Origin: Eledone cirrhosa
Taxonomy: Eukaryota
Assembly (NCBI GenBank): GCA_964016885.1
Contig: OZ024742.1
Location: forward strand, 324,384,001-324,448,000
DNA length: 64,000 nt
Direction of reading: 5' to 3'
Shown: piece by piece, positions 14,966-60,084 of the stretch
Layout: the number at the start of each line of letters is the position of its first letter
Numbering within the stretch: the first letter of the stretch is position 1
Made by a program: the position numbers and the translations under genes
Notes under the pieces: model-generated
Told to the model about the DNA's origin: nothing
The model's input: the letters and a program-made list of their open reading frames with translations, nothing else
The model's database searches: none

Positions 14966-15047
14966 CCTTTACCGAGTCGGTTTCGATCCTCAAAAATAAA
15001 CGGAGTCCATACGGCCTTCGTTGCAAAGAAAGAATCTCGTCAGAAGG
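14966..15047 (-). ncRNA. Type I hammerhead ribozyme; sister copy 35168-35252 minus
   Basis: rc: cctt-CTGACGA-gattct...aggatc-GAAA-ccgactcgg-TA-aagg; compensatory stem II change in the sister. Confidence 0.8.
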
Positions 15048-21371: not shown

Positions 21372-21690
21372 ATAATATATAAGAACAAAAGATGGTTAAA
21401 AGAGTTCCATGTATTTTATTATGCGCATTTCAAAAACAAATATCATCATGCAATAATATTTGTGTTTTCATCAGATAAAACAGCAAGAAGGTTAAAAAAC
21501 ACTTGTGGATAGTGCAGTTATGTTGATTTAAAACTGCACTATCCACAAGTGTTTTTTAACCTTCATATCATGTCTTCCTGTTTTATCTGATGAAAACACA
21601 AATATTATTATTGCATGATGATATTTGTTTTTGAAATGCGCATAATAAAATACATGGAACTCTTTTAACCATCTTTTGTTCTTATATATT

Positions 21691-21788: not shown

Positions 21789-22212
<424 letters not shown>

Positions 22213-29165: not shown

Positions 29166-30151
29166 ATATATATATCTGTTATATATATATATCGAAGGAA
29201 ATTCAGAAATAGCCGTCGAAACGGCTTGAGCTCTGTCGTCGGGGTCATACCTTTTCCTATATAGATATATGGAAAAGAATGAAACGAAATTTCATTTCTT
29301 ACTCTTAGTACGGCTGATACTTAAGTTTAAGTATGTATCTATACGTACATACATATATGTATACAGACGTACAGTAGTATGTATATATATACATACATGC
29401 ACACATATATATATATGTACGTATGGGTTTACCGACCATTTATTATAATGTTCGGTTTGTTTGTAAACAAACAAACAGCTCGAATTACGCCGTACAGGGT
29501 TCAGGCAACCATCGTCGCCTTTTTGTTCAACACTGACACAGGAACGATGTACTAGTTTCAAGTTTATTAGCTATCGTCAACATCTTATACCTTCCTGTCA
29601 GATGATTGAACGTCTGAAAGTATATACTTTCCTTATGCATATTAACGGCAGAGCAACCTAATTTGCATATCAAGTGAGTTAGTCGGCCGGGCGCACCGAA
29701 AACGATAAATGGGGGAAAAATATATATATATATATATATATTGCTTATTTATTTTATATTTTGTTTATTGATTTATTTATTACTTATTTATTTTGTGTTC
29801 TATGCATGTCTGTGTTCGATGAGGAATCAAGCTTCCCTGAAAATGTCGATGGTAGAAATTTCTTAAGGGTCATTAATCTAATTTCTCCGCATGTTCACTG
29901 ATTTATCTAGTTTTGTACATTATCTGTCGACGACTGCATCAAGCGTTACCTGAAGCGGTAGGTGTTTAAAATATATTTGAGGATCCCTTTCTAGGCTCCA
30001 GAAATATTACTAAATATATATGTATTAAAAAACAAACAAACAAACTTAATGTGAGTTTATTCCATGCTATATAGTATTTATAAGCATTTAGAATACTGTA
30101 TGTTGACAGTGACGGAGAATAATGGTTCTAACAATTGGTGATATATATGTG

Positions 30152-30209
<58 letters not shown>

Positions 30210-30249
30210 CGTGGGAAAGTGAAAAATCGGAGAATAGACCGTTAAAACA

Positions 30250-31864
30250 TGTTTTTGATATAGATAGCTACTACGCCTCTATCTCCCCCATACTCTTAAA
30301 TAAGGCACTTATCTTAGCTAGATCTAACACTAGCCTCACCAAAAAAGAAATAGACATAATTCTAACGGCACGTAGAACCATTATCCAGTTCGAAGGCTCC
30401 CACTGGACCAGAACCAACCGTCCTGATAACTTCGATGTCACGATGGGGTCCAGCGACTCAGCGCAAGCAACTGACCTGGTTGGGATATACCTCCTACATA
30501 AGCTTAGGGAAGAAATACCCGCCCTACAAGGAGGTGTATATAGGGACGACGCCTTGTTTACCGTTAGGAACCATAGCCCCCGTAGGATAGAGAACCTTAA
30601 CAAACATATACACAGGTTCTTTAAGTCATACGGCCTATCCGTAACTATGGACCTCAACCACAGGGTTGTCAACTTCCTGGACGTGACCCTGGAGTTGAGT
30701 ACGGGCTTATACAAGCCATACCATAAGCCTGGAGAGTGCCTCTCTTATATTAATTATGCCTCCAACCACCCTAAGCAGACTCTCAACTCCATAGTCTATA
30801 GTATCTCACATAGAATCTCGAGACTATCCGCCAATGAGGATATCTTCAACCAAGCGGCTGATTACTACAATAGGGCCCTGATAAGCGCCGGCTTTAACCG
30901 AGGAATTTCCTACATCCCTAACGCTAGCTCTAGAAACCACCCCCTCATAAAACTAACGTTATAGTAAACCATACCTATAACCGATCACGCGGCGACCTCG
31001 TTAAAGTCGGATATAATAGAATAGATAACCGCACCAAAGATCACGTCCCCGGCGACGGTGAATACTGTAGATTACTCAAACTATTCCCCTATTACAAAAC
31101 CAACAAAGGCGACGGCCTACTACCAACGCCTTCCAACCAACATCTTCGTGTACATAAACATGGAAGTGGTAGAAAGAGTGCACCCGAGCATAAAGTGAAA
31201 GGGGCACCGAACGGGCGACAGCACATTAACACACATAAGAGCGATCGCTTAGATGGAACCACCCGTAGCAAAAGTACAAGGACACGTAATCGCCACCGTA
31301 ACGTCCTATGGTTCCACCCCCTACTCTCGAAGTGTGGCCTCCAACATACCCCGGATATTCTTCGAAGCCTTAGAGAAGAACTTCCCACCCAACCATAGGT
31401 ATAGAAAAATTCTTAATAGGAACAATATAAAAATATCCTTCTCTACTACTCCTAACCTAGCAGACATCATAGGAACAACGAACCACAGTAAGATCACCAA
31501 GACACAGCACCTCGACGCAGACGCACCTACACCTGACAATAACTGTATCGGCCTTAACAACTCCCTGACAGCATCCAATAGTGTTGGCAACGGCATCCGC
31601 AGACGCAACCAGAATGACCGCGAAGTGACTGGGGAGCATGCAAAACATGGCGTGCGGAATAACAATCGCACCATCCCGCGTGCTGTGGGTTGTAATTGTG
31701 CTAACGACAGCTGCGGTAGCGTAGGTAACAACGTAGGCAGCAACAATGATAGCCTTATCGTGGGAAATAGACGGAACAGCGACAGAAATTGCAACTGCCG
31801 CGACAGAAGACGGTGCCCCCTTAGAGGATACTGCTTGACCGATAGGGTTATATATAGATGCACT
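30250..31864 (+). pseudogene. PLE RT fragment (YRDD type) with linker and start of GIY-YIG; disrupted
   Basis: FDIDSYY, FDVTMGS, YRDDAL, NFLDVTL, SNHP, CNC..CPLRGYCL..VIY; stop and frameshift near 30964 and 31320. Confidence 0.88.
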
Positions 31865-31872
31865 CGTAATTA

Positions 31873-31910
31873 CGAGCTGAGCATCCGCTAAGGTGAAACA
31901 ATTGTTCTCG
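31873..31910 (+). ncRNA. Minimal hammerhead (G8 mutated) fused to the truncated PLE
   Basis: cgag-CTGAGCA-t-cc-gctaa-gg-t-GAAA-caattg-TT-ctcg. Confidence 0.6.
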
Positions 31911-31963: not shown

Positions 31964-32231
31964 TATTACTTCAAAATATTAATAAATATAGACATTCAAG
32001 TGATCAAATATATTTTATTAGACATATTTCAGAGGTACTGAGCTATTTCATCAGTACGTCCTCATCAGATAAAATAACACACTTGACTGAACCATCAGCA
32101 CAGTTGAGGTATGTCAGACATCAATTTATTTTATCTGATGAGGACGTACTGATGAAATAGCTCTGAAATATGTATAATAAAATATATTTGATCACATGAA
32201 TGTCTATATTTATTAATATTTTGAAGTAATA
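31964..32231. repeat. Foldback carrying two hammerheads (32011-32076 minus; 32127-32184 plus)
   Basis: tattttat-CTGATGA-gg..gtactg..cagtac-ctct-GAAA-tatgt(c/a)-TA-ataaaata; the plus copy has a stem II deletion. Confidence 0.8.
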
Positions 32232-35099: not shown

Positions 35100-35470
35100 C
35101 AAGGTTTAGCAAATAAGAAAAAGTTTCAAAATAAATAAAAAAAAATTCACTGTACTCACTATGGTTACCTTTACCGAATCGGTTTCGAGTCTCAAAAATA
35201 AATGGACAGTCCTTGCGGCCTTCCATTGAAAAGATAAACTCTCGTCAGAAGGTTCTTTTCACTCGGAGAATATAAAATTCCCGAGTCCAAATTACGAACT
35301 GGCGCTATTCAAAATTGTTCCCGAGATGAGAGTGAATGATGTGGAAGCAATTCTGTCCAGTGCCGTGTGTAAATAGCAGCAGTCAGAACGACCCAATTTT
35401 ATCCACATTAGCATATGGTTGGACAATACATGTGTCCCTAGACGCTTTTTGTGTGTAGGGATATATACTT

Positions 35471-37903: not shown

Positions 37904-38063
37904 AGTAGAAGGGATATTTAATTTGTTGGAAATAAAACAAATAAATATAAATGCTTATAACTGATTCAGAGCACTCGACAGTTTTCTGGAGTAAATATTC
38001 AATGATATTAAATAAATGGAAACTATATTTATAAAACCATATTTATTCAATTATATATATTTT

Positions 38064-38855
38064 TGCCCCCTTAGAGGATACTGCTTGACTGATAGGGTTA
38101 TATATAGATGCACTATTACTAGCCACAATAGCGCTAAACATTATATAGGGGCTACCCCCGGCCCGTTCAAAATTAGGTTTCGAACACATCTCCACTCTTT
38201 CACAAATAGAAAACTAAGGCACTCCACTTCGCTCGCGGACTACATCACATCACTAAAGGACTTAAACATCAGCTTCTCCACGCACTGGGAGATTGTCGGC
38301 AGGGCTGCACCGTACAACTTCAAGAGGAAATGCGATATTTGCCTCATGGAGCTCTACCACATCATAACTGCAGCCCACGAGCTCATCAACAGCAGAGCTG
38401 AAACAGCGATAAGTTGTACACATCGCTTAAAAATATCCTTCTTCAGATGGGTTAAGGATGAAGAGTGAAACCGTACACCGGATCTCCATGCAACAAGTCT
38501 TAACACCCTGGCGGGCAGGCGCTGCAAAATAACACCCACGAAACAATCCTTGCATACCAGACCCAGCCTCAGACAAACAGCTGCGGCAAAAAAAAAAAAA
38601 AAAAATTGTCCAGGAAAGACTGCCCTAACACCGACCAGAGTTACCTCCCTTGATCTGCTGCAAAATCAAAGCAAGATATTTTTGCGAGCAATGAACCTTG
38701 ATGTGGATTTAACCCCCAAAACTCTTTCCGAGCAATATAAGGAACACTTGTGATTATTTATGCCCTTGAGAAGCCCAACTGAGCGAAACGTACGTAGGTG
38801 CTGTTTTAAATAAACATGTTTTAACGGTCTATTCTCCGATTTTTTACTTTCCCAC

Positions 38856-51526: not shown

Positions 51527-51615
<89 letters not shown>

Positions 51616-51844
51616 TATATATAATAGGTGTTTCTGGTATATAATATGAATATGTACATATATATGCGAGGTTTTTGATATGAAATCGTGTGTCGAGACA
51701 AATATTGTTATACTTGGGGATATACACGCACACACACAAAAAAGAACACACACATATATACCCACATAAATACATGCACACACACAAACACACACACACA
51801 CACACACATATATATGTAATAGGCGTTTCTGGTATATAATGTGA

Positions 51845-52613: not shown

Positions 52614-52651
<38 letters not shown>

Positions 52652-52864
52652 CGTTTCTGAATTTGTTTAGCAAGATTCTTTATCTGAAATCGTGTGTTGA
52701 AACCGATATTGTTATACTTTGGGAGGGTCATGTTGCCAATAAGAAACACACGCACCAGTTGCTTTCACTTCAATTTAATTTATTATATATTTATAAATTT
52801 ACAAATTTATAAATTTCTGGTTGGTTGGTTGGTTCCACAACCAGATAGTTGTTTATATATATAT

Positions 52865-52909
52865 AGTCATAGTTCTTTCGTCACACACTCTGTGACCTCT
52901 TCAGTGACT
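52865..52909 (-). ncRNA. pLTR hammerhead ribozyme (3' copy)
   Basis: rc: agtca-CTGAAGA-g-gtcaca-gagtg-tgtgac-GAAA-gaac-TA-tgact. Confidence 0.85.
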
Positions 52910-53192
52910 GGGGATTTCTTTCTTCGTTTCTGTGCCTTTCCTTTCTTCTATCCTACGCCATTTTGTTTGTGTGTGGGTTGCGTGCTCAGTTTGCGCATGC
53001 GCCACATCCGGGTGTCTGTGTGTGTTTGTGTTCATTTTTCTATTTGTTTGTTTATTTATTTATTTATTGTTGGTTGGTTGTTTGTTCTATGTGTGTGTGT
53101 GTTTTCATTTTGTCTTGTGTGTGTTTTCATTTTGTGTGTGTTTTCAATTGTAAGTTGTTTGTTCTATGTGTGTGTGTGTTTTCATTTTGTCC

Positions 53193-56100
53193 TTAATTGT
53201 AAGTTGTGATGTTGCTGTTCCACTCATATTTTCTATTTAATTTTGGTTTTAATTCTTTTATGCTTACTGCCTCTGTAATTTGCCTAAACATTGCGTCTTT
53301 CTTGTGTGTGGATTCTATTTTTATTTCTATGCTCTCTAATTTACCCCTGTGTTCTATCTTAGCATGTTGGTAGAGCACAGATGATTCTTTATTATCTTGA
53401 AGGTCTCGCCAGTGTTCATTTATTCGTTCCCCTATACTACGAGCTGTCTCACCTATGTACACTATATTTTTGTTTCTACATTGTCCTTCAGTACATCTTA
53501 TGCTATATACTACATTTCTAGTTTTACAGTTAATATGGGGGCTTATTTTACAGGTTATACATTTCTTATCTATACATGAGGGTCTTTGGAACGGGTATGT
53601 CTTGCTAATAAGTGTTTTTACGGAGGTACCAGGTCTTTCTACTATCTTAATATTGAGATTATGTTTCTTTAGGGCCCTTCTAAATTTGTAGGCTAGTTCG
53701 CCTCTAGGGGTTGTATTGATGAACATTACACTCTGGTATTTATTGCTATCATACCATGAGTTTATTCTATTGGCCTTGTTCTTAGTTCTTTCTATTCTAT
53801 TCCAAAATTTGCTCCTATACAAGGGGCAGGTCCCATTTATGTCATTATTTACCATTTTTTCCCATTTGGTTCTGGCTCCTTTATACACTCTGATTCTATC
53901 TCTCTGATTGTAGCCAGAGAACTGCATACGGTGGATGAAGTGTTGTATGTGTCTCTCTAGTTCTTCGGGGTTGCACATGCGGGACACATTTCTCATCACC
54001 CGTACCAAATCCGCAATCAGTATGTTGATTTTGGTATGGTCCGAAATGGCCGAGTTTCGGTGGATCAGATGTTTGGAAGTCATGGGTTTGGCATAATGGG
54101 AATGGAGGATTTGTTTTTGGTTGTTAATTGTATCTAACCAGAGCTCTGTGTCTAGTACAGGTAATCGATGGTTGGGGTGTCTACTTGGGTAGTCTATAGT
54201 AACTCTAATGCTCTGGTGGTTGGAGTTTGCTATTTGCTGGATGCTTTCCATTGTGTTTTTCTCTAGTTCCTGACTGTTCTTTAGTGGGGGTGTCTTAACT
54301 ACGATGTTTATATCATCTACGTAGCGGGAGTACATTATCAGGGTTAAGCTGTCTTCTAATTGTTCATTAAGTTTTTGTTTAAGTCTACTGTCCCACCATA
54401 CCATGAATAAGTTAGCTATGTCGCCTGCAATGCTAACACCAATGGCTGCTCCTTCCTCTTGGGCATATGTTTTACCATTAAATTTGAACATATGTTCCTT
54501 AAGGGTTAATTTTATGCTGGCCCCTACCGCATGTGCAATCATTTTCTTCAGTTCATCGTGGTTTTCGGGTGTCCGTATGGCTCTGGTCCACCCGTTCCAT
54601 CTATCTGTGTGGGTTTTCTTGGCCATTGAGGTAATGGTAGGTGGTCTGCCTCTTGCTGGTCTTGTAGGGCACAGGTTGCTAAGGTCATAAGTGTCTAGGT
54701 AACTATTACTATGGGTAAGCTTAAGTAGAAGTCCCAGCTCACTGGTATCAATCCCACGGAACTCAACCTTGCTCTCGCTGATCATTTCGACGCATTTCTC
54801 CACAGCAAAATCCACGTCAATAGATGGATACAGGGACACAACATCCATACTGCCTATTATGCAGTTTGTTAGGTCCCCAGATCGGTTACCCGCGCCGATT
54901 CTGCTGAGGAGGTCCTCCGTGCTGTCACACACATCTGTGGACATCTCAATGATGGGGCGTATGATCAGGGAGAGGAAGTAGGACAGTCTGTAGTTACTAG
55001 CAATGTTAGCCCCACAGACTGGCCGTGTTGGTGGTCCCGCGACAGGGTCCCAGCCCGTTTTATGGTCTTTTCGAAGCCCATACAACGCCGGCACGTCATT
55101 GTTCCAGGCCTGGAAGTTGTTGGCAGTCCTTTTGTTGGGCTGCATTATATTTGTCCACATCACCATATGGGCATTGAGGGTTTTTTCTCTATCCTCATGC
55201 TCCTGTGGTGTTACCTCTCTTGTGTTAGTGATGTGGGGTTGCATTGCCTGGATGTAGTTTGGCAGGCTGTCAACCGACATTCTGCCAGACTTGTCTGTTG
55301 GAAAGCATGCTATCTCTGCATTACGCGAGCGCTGCATGAGCTTACGCAAGCCATTTGCAGATTCTTCTCCCAGTTGCTGGGCCTCTATTCTATTATGCTT
55401 CTTGCTATACTGTTCTATAATATTTCTAAGTTCGGATTTAGCTATACTAAATTGTGCTTCTGTTTGTTCATCGATCTGCGACGGCAACTGCGTGCGTTTG
55501 TTAAATGGCAAAGTCGTGGCGTGGACTCGTCGTAGGTCGAATGATTTATCGGAGGGGTTATAAAACGGAGAGTTCCAGGCTGCTGCTTTATGTGTACTAG
55601 TGCTATTGTTATTGTTAGTTGTGTTGTTTCTATTTCCACCAACAGCAGCAGCCTCAGCTTCATGGTTGTTTCTATGTCTCTCATAATTACTCCTGTCTCT
55701 TTCCACTGGCTCAATGTTGTTATCTACCCTATTTTGTGTGTCTGTGTGTTCGTCTTGGTTATTCTCTTTGTCCTTAGTCTCCCATCTCCTTTTCCTTTTA
55801 ATCCTATTACTTTCTCTTATTTCTCTGATTTCTGTGCTACTGTCATTACTTGTTTTCTGTGTCTGTGTGTTTGTTAAGATTGTGGTGGTGGTGAGAGGCA
55901 TTGAATGCGTGTGTGTTGTTGTTGTTGATGTGTGTTGTTGTTGATGTGTGTTGTTGTTGTCTCTGTGTGTGTGTGTGTTATCGTTGTTGTGTGTGTTGTT
56001 ATTGTTGTTTGTGTTTGCGTGTCTGTTGTTGTTGTATCTGGGTATGTTGCTATTGTTGTTGTTGTTGATGTGTGTGTTGTTGTTATTGTTGTCTCCGTGT

Positions 56101-56984
56101 GTGTTGTTATTGTTGTTTGTGTCTGCGTGTCTGTTGTATCTGGGTATGTTGCTATTGTTGTTGTTATTGTTGTTTGTGTCTGTGTGTCTGTTGTTGTTGG
56201 AATGTGTGTTGTATATGTGTGTGCGTATATTGTTGCTTTTGTTTTTGTTTTTGATGCTCCAGCGTAGTTTCGTAAATGATTTTTCTATTTCTGACAGACA
56301 ACTAATCATATTTACCTTCTTGAATGTCGCAAATTTGGGTGGCAGACGTAACACAGACATTTCATTATTATCTATTTCCGTGTTTCGATAAATGTTGGTA
56401 TTTTCATTGTTGAACTCTTCAGATAATGAGGTGTCGGCCATGTTGATACCGTCAATTTTGTCGGGATATCTATTGGTATACTCTATAGTATCCCGATTTA
56501 GCTTTGCCTGTTTAAGCCACTTTAATTTTCTGTTAAAGTGCTTATTACATTCTTGAGTAATGTACTGTTCTTCGGGGCGTATAAGGCTTATAAATGTTAG
56601 TTTTTCTGCTGGTGTGGTGATTTTAGATATTTCTTGTATTAGGTTACGCTTTAGTTTTTCTTGATGACTTAATTCTCTATAGGTCTTCTTTTTTATGTTT
56701 AGAATTAAATTTCGTTTTAGCCTATCTGCTTGTTTTTTGGTGAGTTGTAATCTTCTAACGTCGGTATTGATGGTGTTGGTGTAGATTCTAGAAGTGGTGC
56801 ACAGTTTAATGAAGCGTAGTTGTCGAGATGTTATGGTTTTTCGTAGACAACAGAACATGGTGGTTTTCAGTATCTTGTTAGCCTGGCTAAGGCTTACGAT
56901 ATTTCGTTTCTGAATTTGTTTAGCAAGATTCTTTATCTGAAATCGTGTGTTGAAACCGATATTGTTATACTTTGGGAGGGTCAT
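53193..56984 (-). CDS. Intact PLE polyprotein: RT, CxxxxCxxC linker and GIY-YIG endonuclease (Naiad-like, tentative)
   Basis: PTDKSG, YGLRKDHK, RPVC, SMDVVSLYPSI, QEEGAAIG, RYVDDI, LPVLD, VVY..YIGETAR..ER..EH..E..LN; first ATG at 56984. Confidence 0.93.
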   Translation of the reverse strand: MTLPKYNNIGFNTRFQIKNLAKQIQKRNIVSLSQANKILKTTMFCCLRKTITSRQLRFIKLCTTSRIYTNTINTDVRRLQLTKKQADRLKRNLILNIKKKTYRELSHQEKLKRNLIQEISKITTPAEKLTFISLIRPEEQYITQECNKHFNRKLKWLKQAKLNRDTIEYTNRYPDKIDGINMADTSLSEEFNNENTNIYRNTEIDNNEMSVLRLPPKFATFKKVNMISCLSEIEKSFTKLRWSIKNKNKSNNIRTHIYNTHSNNNRHTDTNNNNNNNSNIPRYNRHADTNNNNNTHGDNNNNNTHINNNNNSNIPRYNNNRHANTNNNNNTHNNDNTHTHRDNNNTHQQQHTSTTTTHTHSMPLTTTTILTNTQTQKTSNDSSTEIREIRESNRIKRKRRWETKDKENNQDEHTDTQNRVDNNIEPVERDRSNYERHRNNHEAEAAAVGGNRNNTTNNNNSTSTHKAAAWNSPFYNPSDKSFDLRRVHATTLPFNKRTQLPSQIDEQTEAQFSIAKSELRNIIEQYSKKHNRIEAQQLGEESANGLRKLMQRSRNAEIACFPTDKSGRMSVDSLPNYIQAMQPHITNTREVTPQEHEDREKTLNAHMVMWTNIMQPNKRTANNFQAWNNDVPALYGLRKDHKTGWDPVAGPPTRPVCGANIASNYRLSYFLSLIIRPIIEMSTDVCDSTEDLLSRIGAGNRSGDLTNCIIGSMDVVSLYPSIDVDFAVEKCVEMISESKVEFRGIDTSELGLLLKLTHSNSYLDTYDLSNLCPTRPARGRPPTITSMAKKTHTDRWNGWTRAIRTPENHDELKKMIAHAVGASIKLTLKEHMFKFNGKTYAQEEGAAIGVSIAGDIANLFMVWWDSRLKQKLNEQLEDSLTLIMYSRYVDDINIVVKTPPLKNSQELEKNTMESIQQIANSNHQSIRVTIDYPSRHPNHRLPVLDTELWLDTINNQKQILHSHYAKPMTSKHLIHRNSAISDHTKINILIADLVRVMRNVSRMCNPEELERHIQHFIHRMQFSGYNQRDRIRVYKGARTKWEKMVNNDINGTCPLYRSKFWNRIERTKNKANRINSWYDSNKYQSVMFINTTPRGELAYKFRRALKKHNLNIKIVERPGTSVKTLISKTYPFQRPSCIDKKCITCKISPHINCKTRNVVYSIRCTEGQCRNKNIVYIGETARSIGERINEHWRDLQDNKESSVLYQHAKIEHRGKLESIEIKIESTHKKDAMFRQITEAVSIKELKPKLNRKYEWNSNITTYN

Positions 56985-57117
56985 GTTGCCAATAAGAAAC
57001 ACACGCACCAGTTGCTTTCACTTCAATTTAATTTATTATATATTTATAAATTTACAAATTTATAAATTTCTGGTTGGTTGGTTGGTTCCACAACCAGATA
57101 GTTGTTTATATATATAT

Positions 57118-57162
57118 AGTCATAGTTCTTTCGTCACACACTCTGTGACCTCTTCAGTGACT
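57118..57162 (-). ncRNA. pLTR hammerhead ribozyme (5' copy, ~135 nt upstream of the ATG)
   Basis: Identical to 52865-52909. Confidence 0.85.
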
Positions 57163-58304
57163 GGGGATTTCTTTCTTCGTTTCTGTGCCTTTCCTTTCTT
57201 CTATCCTACGCCATTTTGTTTGTGTGTGGGTTGCGTACTCAGTTTGCGCATGCGCCACATCCGGGTGTCTGTGTGTGTTTGTGTTCATTTTTCTATTTGT
57301 TTGTTTATTTATTTATTTATTGTTGGTTGGTTGTTTGTTCTATGTGTGTGTGTGTTTTCATTTTGTCTTGTGTGTGTTTTCATTTTGTGTGTGTTTTCAA
57401 TTGTAAGTTGTTTGTTCTATGTGTGTGTGTGTTTTCATTTTGTCCTTAATTGTAAGTTGTGATGTTGCTGTTCCACTCATATTTCTATTTAATTTTGGTT
57501 TTAATTCTTTTATGCTTACTGCCTCTGTAATTTGCCTAAACATTGCGTCTTTCTTGTGTGTGGATTCTATTTTTATTTCTATGCTCTCTAATTTACCCCT
57601 GTGTTCTATCTTAGCATGTTGATAGAGCACAGATGATTCTTTATTATCTTGGAGGTCTCGCCAGTGTTCATTTATTCGTTCCCCTATACTACGAGCTGTC
57701 TCACCTATGTACACTATATTTTTGTTTCTACACTGTCCTTCAGTACATCTTATGCTATATACTACATTTCTAGTTTTACAGTTAATATGGGGGCTTATTT
57801 TACAGGTTATACATTTCTTATCTATATATGAGGGTCTTTGGAACGGGTATGTCTTGCTAATAAGTGTTTTTACGGAGGTACCAGGTCTTTCTACTATCTT
57901 AATATTGAGATTATGTTTCTTTAGGGCCCTTCTAAATTTGTAGGCTAGTTCGCCTCTAGGGGTTGTATTGATGAACATTACACTCTGGTATTTATTGCTA
58001 TCATACCATGAGTTTATTCTATTGGCCTTGTTCTTAGTTCTTTCTATTCTATTCCAAAATTTGCTCCTATACAAGGGGCAGGTCCCATTTATGTCATTAT
58101 TTACCATTTTTTCCCATTTGGTTCTGGCTCCTTTATACACTCTGATTCTATCTCTCTGATTGTAGCCAGAGAACTGCATACGGTGGATGAAGTGTTGTAT
58201 GTGTCTCTCTAGTTCTTCGGGGTTGCACATGCGGGACACATTTCTCATCACCACTAATTGATTTGACAGATGTCTTTAACACATGATACCAAATATTATT
58301 TTGA

Positions 58305-58500
58305 TCAGGGCGGTGGATTGCCAGTATCGGTAGACGGTCGGACGCTATGCTTTGCAGCATAGTTACGTCCCTTTACGAACTGAGTTCAAATCCCGCCGTG
58401 GTTAACTTTGCCTTTCATCCTTACGGGGTCGATAAAAATAAAGTACCAGTAATGCACTGGGTAATTGCTGGCCTTGTGCCAAAAGTAGAAACAATTATTT
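58305..58500 (+). mobile_element. tRNA-derived SINE
   Basis: Same family as 1942-2142. Confidence 0.85.
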
Positions 58501-58606
58501 TGATCAGTAGTTCGTGTGTAAGTATATAAATATATATATATATATATATCCTTGTGTGTCTGTGTATATATATGTATGTTTGCATGCATGAATGAATACA
58601 AATTCT

Positions 58607-60046
58607 CCACTCACACTAAGCTAAACCCATGGCCTCCAAATACCTGATACTCAAAAACTCAGCAATGTCCAGTAGTGCTAAGTTTAATATTCTGATCGCA
58701 GATTTGGTACGAGTGATGAAGAATGTGTCCAGCATGTGCGACCCAACAGAAATGGAAAGACACATCCAACACTTCATCAACCGCATGCAGTTCTCTGGCT
58801 ACAACCAAAGAGACAGAGTCAGAGTATACGAAGGAGCCATGGAAAAGTATAAGACCCTCATAGAACTGGACATGAAAGGAATTTGCCCATTATACAGGAG
58901 CAAATCATGGAATAGCTTAGATAGGGCTAGACATAAGATAGGGAAAGCCACCTCATGGTACGACAACCAGAGATAACAGAGTGTCATGTTTGTGGACGCC
59001 ATCCCTGGAGGGAAATTAGCTAACCAGTGTAGAAAGGCCCTTAGAAGGACCCACTTAAAAATAAAGGTGGTAGAAAAGCCAGGAACCACCATAAAATCCC
59101 TGATCAGCAAAACCTACCCTTTTAAGAAAACCCACTGTACCAATAGGAAATGTATCATATGTAAGGTGAACCCCCGGATAAACTGTAAAACTGGAAACGT
59201 AGTCTATAGCATAAGATGTACAGAGGGTACTTGCAGAAACATGACAACAACATACATAGGTGAGACAGCTCGTAGCATAGGCGAAAGGATAGACCAACAC
59301 TGGGGGGAACTAAAAGGACGAAAAAAGGGGTCAGTACTATACGAACATGCTAGACAACAACATGACGGTAACATAGACAACATAGAAATTAGAATAATAT
59401 CTAAACATAGAAATTACCCAGCAGATAGGCAAATCAGAGAGGCCAGTGAAATAGAAATTAGAAGACCAAAGCTAAACAGAAAGAATGAGTGGAATAACAA
59501 CAACACCCAAACAAACAACACTGACATAAGAGAAGTATAAATAAGTAAATAAAATAAGATAAATAAATACATACACAAGCACAATAACAACAAGCACATA
59601 AACACACACTAGTCACCCAGCAAACATAACACTATACACACTAGTCACACAGCAAACATAACACTATACACACACGCAAACGCATGCGCAAAGAAGACAA
59701 AATAAAATAAACAAACCAGCAAATAAATAAATAAATATATAGACAGACTGAATAAAAAATGGTGTAGACATACAACACAACAGGAGGAAAATATAACACC
59801 ACTGACGATGTTGCAGATGTGCAACGAAAGATTTATGTAAATTATGTAAACTATATATATGTGTTTGTGTCTACATTGTATCTGTATTATTTTTGACCGT
59901 CGGTCAGTCAATGGCAACATTGAGGACCGAGTAAGCTAGATTACAGATATAAAAGACAGCGAGAAGCGAAAACCAACCAAACAGTGAGTGTGTTCTGTTA
60001 TTAATTCTGGCAATATTACACAAATATGACCCTCCCCAAGTATAAC

Positions 60047-60047
<1 letters not shown>
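58607..60047 (+). mobile_element. 5'-truncated diverged sister PLE: thumb and GIY-YIG, 3' UTR, HHR (59797-59838), ORF-start tail
   Basis: Protein homologous to the C-terminus of the intact ORF, with one TAA stop at 58974; CTGACGA-t-gttgca-gatg-tgcaac-GAAA; ends ATGACCCTCCCCAAGTATAAC then (TA)n. Confidence 0.9.

Positions 60048-60084
<37 letters not shown>

Follow-up and report, generated by a model that had tools for sequence, protein, structure and literature searches.

The reverse transcriptases (RTs) of Penelope-like elements (PLEs) are the closest relatives of telomerase. Current classification assigns the insertion in the fingers domain (IFD) solely to telomerase reverse transcriptases (TERTs) and to PLE clades with an N-terminal nuclease, and canonical PLEs are stated to be without it (PMC8557442). 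By a hand count in the text of Fig. S1 of that paper, the distance from RT motif A to motif B' is ~65 residues in Penelope, ~122 in human TERT and ~156 in Tetrahymena. The telomerase insert contains a beta-hairpin wedge and promotes processivity (PMC12920920). A preprint of July 2026 (10.64898/2026.07.22.740005) counts eight PLE clades. Diagnostic of Naiad are an N-terminal nuclease, the two motifs CxC and DKA and the absence of a canonical hammerhead, and a cysteine linker is common to Neptune, Nematis and Naiad (PMC8557442). The protein of anole Poseidon cuts and extends both DNA strands and initiates at two internal sites that define a tail, and its ribozyme mutants remain insertion-competent in vitro (PMC11167929). 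Here, we analysed a PLE copy within 64,000 nucleotides of Eledone cirrhosa DNA (assembly GCA_964016885.1, contig OZ024742.1, positions 324,384,001 to 324,448,000), hereafter the window. We conclude, with a probability of about 0.72, that the locus is a ~5.6-kb partial-tandem copy of a high-copy PLE with a C-terminal GIY-YIG nuclease, whose RT represents a separate lineage, likely undescribed, with a fingers insert of ~70 residues. As an insertion, the copy is ordinary and behaves as a canonical hammerhead-bearing PLE; what is new is likely the enzyme lineage with its conserved insert.

The insert lies between motifs A and B'. From the aspartate of motif A to the last glycine of motif B' the window protein counts 135 residues, and this spacing is 132 to 141 in 107 of 121 proteins (the other 14 could not be parsed), compared to 56 to 67 in 97 of 120 Nematis-like proteins, 65 to 67 in 118 of 120 Neptune-like proteins and 69 to 94 in 39 of 46 Naiad/Chlamys-type open reading frames (ORFs). 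A full HMMER scan returned 170 clusters at E<=1e-30, and among the best 150 matches out of 1.84 billion all 61 measurable proteins had the long insert; the few named hosts are Octopus vulgaris and Holothuria leucospilota. ESM Atlas rows also mention flatworms and rotifers, which we treat as leads only. The insert residues listed in Table 1 are conserved in >90% of 117 rows, and aa 770-803 form a basic loop with a median net charge of +5. In an AlphaFold model of the RT region (predicted local distance difference test score, pLDDT, 92.9), the insert is predicted with high confidence to be mostly helical. The best solved matches of the whole-RT model are telomerase RTs (Z 15.7, root mean square deviation 4.2, 357 residues aligned), as expected because the protein is a PLE. 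When the modelled A-B' region was searched on its own against 48,161 chains, the best Z was 3.9, with one TERT at 2.9, and Foldseek returned nothing at E<=0.001; this null proves neither a novel fold nor dissimilarity to TERT. Judging by its position and its basic loop, the insert may engage template or primer in the manner of the telomerase insert, from which it probably arose separately.

Trees built with the insert columns removed set the lineage apart. Among 44 rows, the 15 long-insert rows form one group (support 100/100) on a stem of 1.87 changes per site; the group joins the Nematis-like rows at 94/96, with a position inside them at 88/92. Rows that failed parsing were omitted (4 in one set, 1 in another). 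The nuclease scores 74 bits against the Nematis-like profile, 51 against Naiad and 37 against Neptune-like, and the loop from linker to nuclease core has 7 residues in 54 of 70 proteins, compared to 23-24 in Neptune. The lineage is likely derived from or sister to Nematis. A single ORF with a telomerase-like RT and a GIY-YIG nuclease marks the element as an endonuclease-bearing (EN+) PLE, and a C-terminal nuclease, a CX2-5CxxC linker and a CCHH pattern are found as in Nematis; the canonical Nematis spacing, without a fingers insertion, does not fit (135 versus 56-67 residues). Neptune was rejected on the loop (7 versus 23-24 residues), on the lack of its GTAMG motif and on separate tree groups. 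Hydra was likewise rejected, since its CxCX5C linker, its absence of CCHH and its motif B' GSYDG all differ from what we find (one Hydra row was in the trees); KDHK is common to both.

The preliminary description, made from the sequence alone, had tentatively assigned the element to Naiad on the basis of a CxxxxCxxC linker and the motif GAAIG. This assignment fails: the nuclease is C-terminal, DKS stands at aa 564, a hammerhead is present, and no CxC occurs between the N-terminus and the RT. Because the linker occurs in three clades, it is not diagnostic of Naiad, and GAAIG is absent from the text layer of the supplement to PMC8557442, which contains Naiad proteins. In the RT phylogeny, proposed there as a check, the RT falls in a group (100/100) separate from that of Naiad/Chlamys (98/96), to which a sister relation is not rejected. 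The Naiad motif pattern has 0 matches in the Eledone genome, so the Naiad rows were taken from metagenome contigs.

At the locus itself, the structure first described was borne out. The minus-strand frame 56984-53193 is free of stops over 1263 aa and encodes both RT and nuclease; the direct duplication of 1.35 kb is near-identical, with 58252-56899 aligning to 54000-52646 over 1354 bases with 5 substitutions and a single 1-base indel, a frameshift in the upstream copy; the element ends in a (TA)n run (52620-52649); and identical hammerhead motifs recur 4253 bp apart, with cores CTGAAGA...GAAA beginning at 57157 and 52904. The closest named protein, from Octopus vulgaris, is 67% identical. Searches of Pfam with whole ORFs and of PDB sequences gave no significant match, and weak profile matches (RVT_1, E 9.5e-5; GIY-YIG, E 4.9e-5) were obtained after dropping the Asn-rich N-terminus; such elements are therefore easily overlooked. 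The length of the Asn-rich tract differs among copies (open ORFs of 1236-1283 aa). The nuclease spans aa 1158-1250 of 1263, with the CCHH pattern made up of IRC...QC, H1191 and H1207. The 3' end of the window copy is the longer of two family-wide sites (ATG+86); this copy shows no visible target-site duplication, and its 5' flank is not TA.

The family is large and young. A 28-nt motif from its 3' end has 22,937 exact matches in the 3.0-Gb genome (reversed control, 0), and 40 scored RT matches, out of 2593 candidates, are 99-100% identical. The full ORF of 1236-1283 aa is open in 7 of 58 stretches of up to 10 kb, a set picked for likeness and hence enriched. Beyond this genome, one related locus was found in genome_contigs (a bacterial metagenome-assembled genome [MAG] contig in which the pattern scan found no hammerhead) and none in viral_contigs; that contig is probably host contamination, as probably are further PLE proteins that carry the names of bacterial MAGs or symbionts (L373; P0137, P0398, P0401, P0414).

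Copy ends were mapped around the first 100 motif matches listed, at 84 loci that yielded 102 mappable arms. Two sites account for the 3' ends of 93 arms, 43 at 56959 (ATG+26) and 50 at 56899 (ATG+86), which lie 164 or 224 nt past the predicted ribozyme cut and are placed to within a few bases owing to the TA run; 85 of the 102 arms pass directly into TA-rich sequence, and 2 carry on into the ORF. Among 26 head-to-head pairs, 24 combine one long and one short end, one has two long ends and one is unclassified, a rule that thus holds in 24 of 25 classifiable inverted pairs (p 1.5e-6). This combination is expected, given the two RT starts and the two-strand priming of anole Poseidon. At 55 polymorphic sites, arms within one insertion differ in 3 of 401 comparisons (tandem) and 16 of 1068 (inverted), and comparisons between insertions differ in 39,679 of 165,852 (24%). 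The two repeats in the window differ at 0 of 17 family-polymorphic sites, their 5 substitutions all being private, and therefore come from one template haplotype. Partial-tandem pseudo-long terminal repeats (pLTRs), inverted truncated arms and an optional tail, the structural features of EN+ PLEs, are all present in the family.

Copies reach about two units in length, for which a circle, as previously proposed for such copies (PMC4209133), a read-through tandem transcript or template jumping would each fit. One direct tandem (L185) joins an arm starting at the equivalent of 57225 to ORF position 56767, as if the RT had run off and jumped. The preliminary description envisaged a linear, unit-length RNA bounded by the two cuts. 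Such an RNA is insufficient, because insertions begin 164 or 224 nt beyond its 3' end, and 5' ends do not pile up at the cut: of 55 pLTR-zone ends sampled without selection, 2 come within 5 nt of it, with 1.9 expected. From this set, six apparent ends at 57367-57388 had been discarded as alignment breaks in the simple-repeat untranslated region (UTR), and 22 arms extended past the query start. A word-based DNA search for copies that stop shortly beyond the ribozyme gave no candidates, its words being too frequent. A short-read search for circular RNA junctions would be uninformative, since religation by the hammerhead restores the genomic pLTR sequence. We propose that the nuclease makes a nick in each strand of a (TA)n tract and that either nick would prime reverse transcription within the RNA, at ATG+26 in one case and at ATG+86 in the other. 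This RNA, whether a tandem transcript produced by read-through or a circle formed by the hammerhead, would continue through the pLTR to the next ORF start; the cDNA could therefore exceed one unit and yield a partial tandem like that in the window; joining of two cDNAs would yield the frequent inverted pairs. The hammerhead would process the RNA, with the insertion ends set otherwise.

The hammerheads are minimal and of type I. The pair of predicted cuts lies 4253 nt apart, as first described, and the upstream cut falls 138 nt 5' of the ATG, refining an initial estimate of ~135 nt. The minimum-energy fold contains stem I (5 bp) and stem II (6 bp), with unremarkable folding energies (z -1.7 and -1.25). 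In the window, Rfam returned microsatellite-driven microRNA matches only and left the hammerhead unmatched; a loose hammerhead scan found 7 places, 2 of which are these two cores. Within the family, variation touches only loops II and III and the base at the cut that tolerates change, and in a sister family two base pairs of stem II have changed in a compensatory way, although stem I is weak there; on these two grounds the motif is supported beyond chance. By motif and variation it is the predicted pLTR ribozyme of an EN+ PLE. Co-folding of a ribozyme dimer did not give an extended helix III. Other hammerhead-like cores in the window lie at 14970-15043 (-), 35172-35248 (-), 32135-32176 (+) and 21420-21644 (both strands), two of them with a long stem II and shared flanks. 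Upstream of the ribozyme, copy 5' ends cluster at 57213-57231 (13 of 55 ends, from 11 insertions; scan p 0.003 under a uniform and 0.016 under a smoothed null). The cluster sits at the motif AAAATGGCG, which we take to be YY1-like, with GCGCATGCGC, presumably NRF1-like, upstream of it; both motifs are present again in the sister family despite its different UTR. The cluster may mark the transcription start; full-length copies show no 5' pile-up at 57213-57231.

The preliminary description also cast this copy as a young candidate autonomous driver. Young, open-framed and autonomous in type, with pLTR hammerheads, it is; it is unlikely to be the driver, in view of near-private changes, of other open copies and of the 22,937 exact 3'-end matches of the family. 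Outside simple repeats, the main copy carries nine alleles, of which seven are absent from all of the 36-103 other arms and two recur in a single one; 7 of the 9 are non-synonymous, about the neutral ratio, and two replace conserved residues, a glycine in 45 of 51 homologues and an isoleucine in 99 of 101. Based on these comparisons, the copy is probably an open-frame terminal leaf product and not the family source. Its age is about 0.5-0.7 million years, using the O. bimaculoides rate quoted in PMC13282606, that of a species other than the host.

Several observations weigh against parts of this account. A quick tree of 54 rows leaves the join to Nematis-like rows open and recovers the latter as monophyletic, and approximately unbiased (AU) tests reject neither Naiad/Chlamys (p 0.19) nor Neptune (p 0.23) as sister. 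The labels of the tree references come from a motif comparison with figures in PMC8557442 rather than from curated libraries, and the references comprise one Hydra family and two Poseidon-like rows, with Athena, Coprina and TERT absent. The lineage may already be in Repbase, Dfam, Arkhipova 2006/2017 or the images of Fig. 1 and Fig. 8 of PMC8557442; no description of a long-insert clade was found in the literature searched, which extended neither to those two papers nor to figure images or preprint supplements. At two young junctions the cDNA could have ended precisely at the cut, so that cleaved template may serve sometimes. The private-allele comparison took in 125 arms against ~23,000 ends and could have missed descendants.

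One alternative is an ordinary, already catalogued Nematis family in which the insert is an embellishment peculiar to the lineage, tolerated and without a particular function. The C-terminal nuclease, the CX2-5CxxC linker, the 7-residue loop (54 of 70), the tree position within Nematis-like rows (88/92) and insertions whose every structural feature is known for canonical PLEs all accord with it, but published Nematis rows have the short spacing and GLAMG, the stem measures 1.87 changes per site, the insert combines residues conserved in >90% of 117 rows with a confident predicted fold, and the July 2026 preprint still counts eight clades. We regard it as unlikely, though well worth bearing in mind. 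Very improbable, by comparison, is the model of a Naiad-clade master copy whose two hammerheads excise a unit-length RNA that is translated and copied. Its Naiad membership is refuted by domain order, DKS and hammerhead, although the AU test leaves an RT sister relation to Naiad/Chlamys standing (p 0.19) and TA targeting and a fingers insertion are partly in common with Naiads. For its template, it can draw on the open ORF and intact ribozyme cores, on a unit-derived circle, which would account for copies up to about two units (PMC4209133), and on young loci, where 3 of 15 pLTR-zone junctions fall within 8 nt of the cut (p ~0.04), with the caveat that a TA run beside the cut offers microhomology; the unselected 5' ends (2 of 55 within 5 nt, 1.9 expected), the in vitro insertion by anole Poseidon ribozyme mutants (PMC11167929) and the leaf status of the window copy speak against it.

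Homology of the insert to the telomerase IFD/TRAP, with the lineage keeping an ancestral state that other canonical PLEs lost, would explain the shared position, the similar length (human TERT ~122, Tetrahymena ~156 by hand count) and the TERT matches of the whole-RT model (Z 15.7, rmsd 4.2, 357 aligned). That TERT likeness is general among PLEs, however, the insert is predicted to be mostly helical as opposed to the extended beta-hairpin of the TERT TRAP (PMC12920920), and the tree indicates a derived position within canonical PLEs, so we consider homology improbable. A distinct long-insert lineage in an otherwise canonical PLE is the reading we prefer. Whether it extends further, to a ninth major PLE clade found across marine invertebrates in which a C-terminal nuclease and a hammerhead are combined with a telomerase-sized fingers domain gripping primer and template, as the telomerase insert does, during internal two-strand initiation, and which now ranks among the most successful retroelements of this genome, we put forward tentatively, with chances a little short of even. 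If true, it would overturn the rule by which an IFD is denied to canonical PLEs, and young, open-frame enzymes are on hand for testing that rule. A widespread lineage of canonical layout whose conserved insert is as large as that of TERT means either convergence at one structural site or retention of an old feature, and either outcome bears on telomerase origins.

Table 1. Features of the PLE copy, in window positions (aa, residue of the ORF)
Feature	Position	Strand	Details
Upstream repeat, 5'-truncated	56899..58252	-	Thumb end, nuclease, 3' UTR, pLTR and first 86 nt of the ORF; makes the partial tandem
Candidate pLTR promoter	57205..57255	-	Motifs GCGCATGCGC and AAAATGGCG; adjoins copy 5'-end cluster 57213-57231; putative function
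Upstream minimal type I hammerhead	57118..57162	-	Predicted cut after 57123
Single ORF	53193..56984	-	N-terminal helical region, Asn-rich insert, RT, thumb, Cys linker, GIY-YIG nuclease
Asn-rich low-complexity tract	55899..56237	-	aa 250-362; 46/113 residues Asn
RT core	54150..55295	-	DKS aa 564, RKDHK 638, motif A D714, motif B' GAAIG 845, YVDD 888
Fingers insertion, ~70 aa	54549..54782	-	aa ~735-812; conserved E749, C772, P773, R775, G779, P782, R795, W799
CX4CX2C linker	53550..53576	-	CIDKKCITC, preceding the nuclease
C-terminal GIY-YIG nuclease	53235..53513	-	VVY...C..C...YIG, then R, H, E, N
Downstream minimal type I hammerhead	52865..52909	-	Predicted cut after 52870
60-nt tail	52646..52706	-	Separates the two family-wide 3' termini (ATG+26, ATG+86)
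(TA)n target microsatellite	52620..52649		At the 3' end of the element

The same stretch holds other repeats. A second young family of the long-insert lineage is represented by its 3' part at 58595-60050 (+); it is ~70% identical in the ORF, with 500 candidates, copies 97-99% alike and an A-B' spacing of 135-137. This family carries a separate hammerhead core (59802), shares both promoter-like motifs and has two 3' ends, ~ATG+25 and ~ATG+82. The two PLE copies are separated by a ~200-bp repeat between 14-bp direct repeats (58295-58508), which we take to be SINE-like. Short 3'-end pieces of the element's family or of its sister stand in TA tracts at 21900-22140 (+), 21823-21867 (-) and 51595-51720 (-). 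Fragments of Hydra-type PLEs, with a CxCX5C linker and a GSSDSA motif, occur at 30122-31891 (+) and 38016-38468 (+) and belong to a very abundant family (43,999 candidates). Elsewhere in the genome, five loci (L061, L063, L064, L071 and L205) contain long open Neptune-like and Nematis-like PLE ORFs, and therefore at least four PLE lineages are young here. Positions 1-1843 of the window are a 9-bp tandem array of ~204 copies.

Compared to known systems, the element shares features with several and differs from each. An in-frame Asn-rich stretch that leaves the ORF open is also found in Penelope ORFs of Adineta vaga (PMC3846280); the stretch here is shorter (~110 aa) and precedes the RT, with PxKF on one side of it and DK on the other. 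With the telomerase IFD/TRAP (PMC12920920) the insert shares its A-B' position and a similar length, and the overall RT fold is nearest TERT, yet the insert is predicted to be mainly helical and no structural match was found for it in isolation. Naiad/Chlamys (PMC8557442) likewise target (TA)n, number tens of thousands of copies and have both an insertion at the IFD position and a Cys linker before the nuclease, but differ in that the nuclease here is C-terminal, a hammerhead is present, CxC and DKA are absent and the insert has ~70 residues compared to ~20. The Poseidon element PAc of Anolis carolinensis (PMC11167929) is alike in its partial tandems, pLTR hammerhead, AT-rich targets and two internal RT starts at the beginning of the ORF that define an optional tail; this tail is 60 nt here (ATG+26/+86) and 30-40 nt in PAc, the ribozyme lies 138 nt before the ATG rather than across it, and the window element has a linker and a fingers insert besides. 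The nuclease profile and the RT tree point to Nematis (PMC8557442), which has the same order of RT, CX2-5CxxC linker and GIY-YIG nuclease with CCHH and the same short loop from linker to core. From Nematis, in turn, the lineage differs by ~70 extra residues between motifs A and B', a long stem, an ORF of 1000-1300 aa, DKS for DKG, RKDHK, and G[GA][AP]IG for GLAMG.

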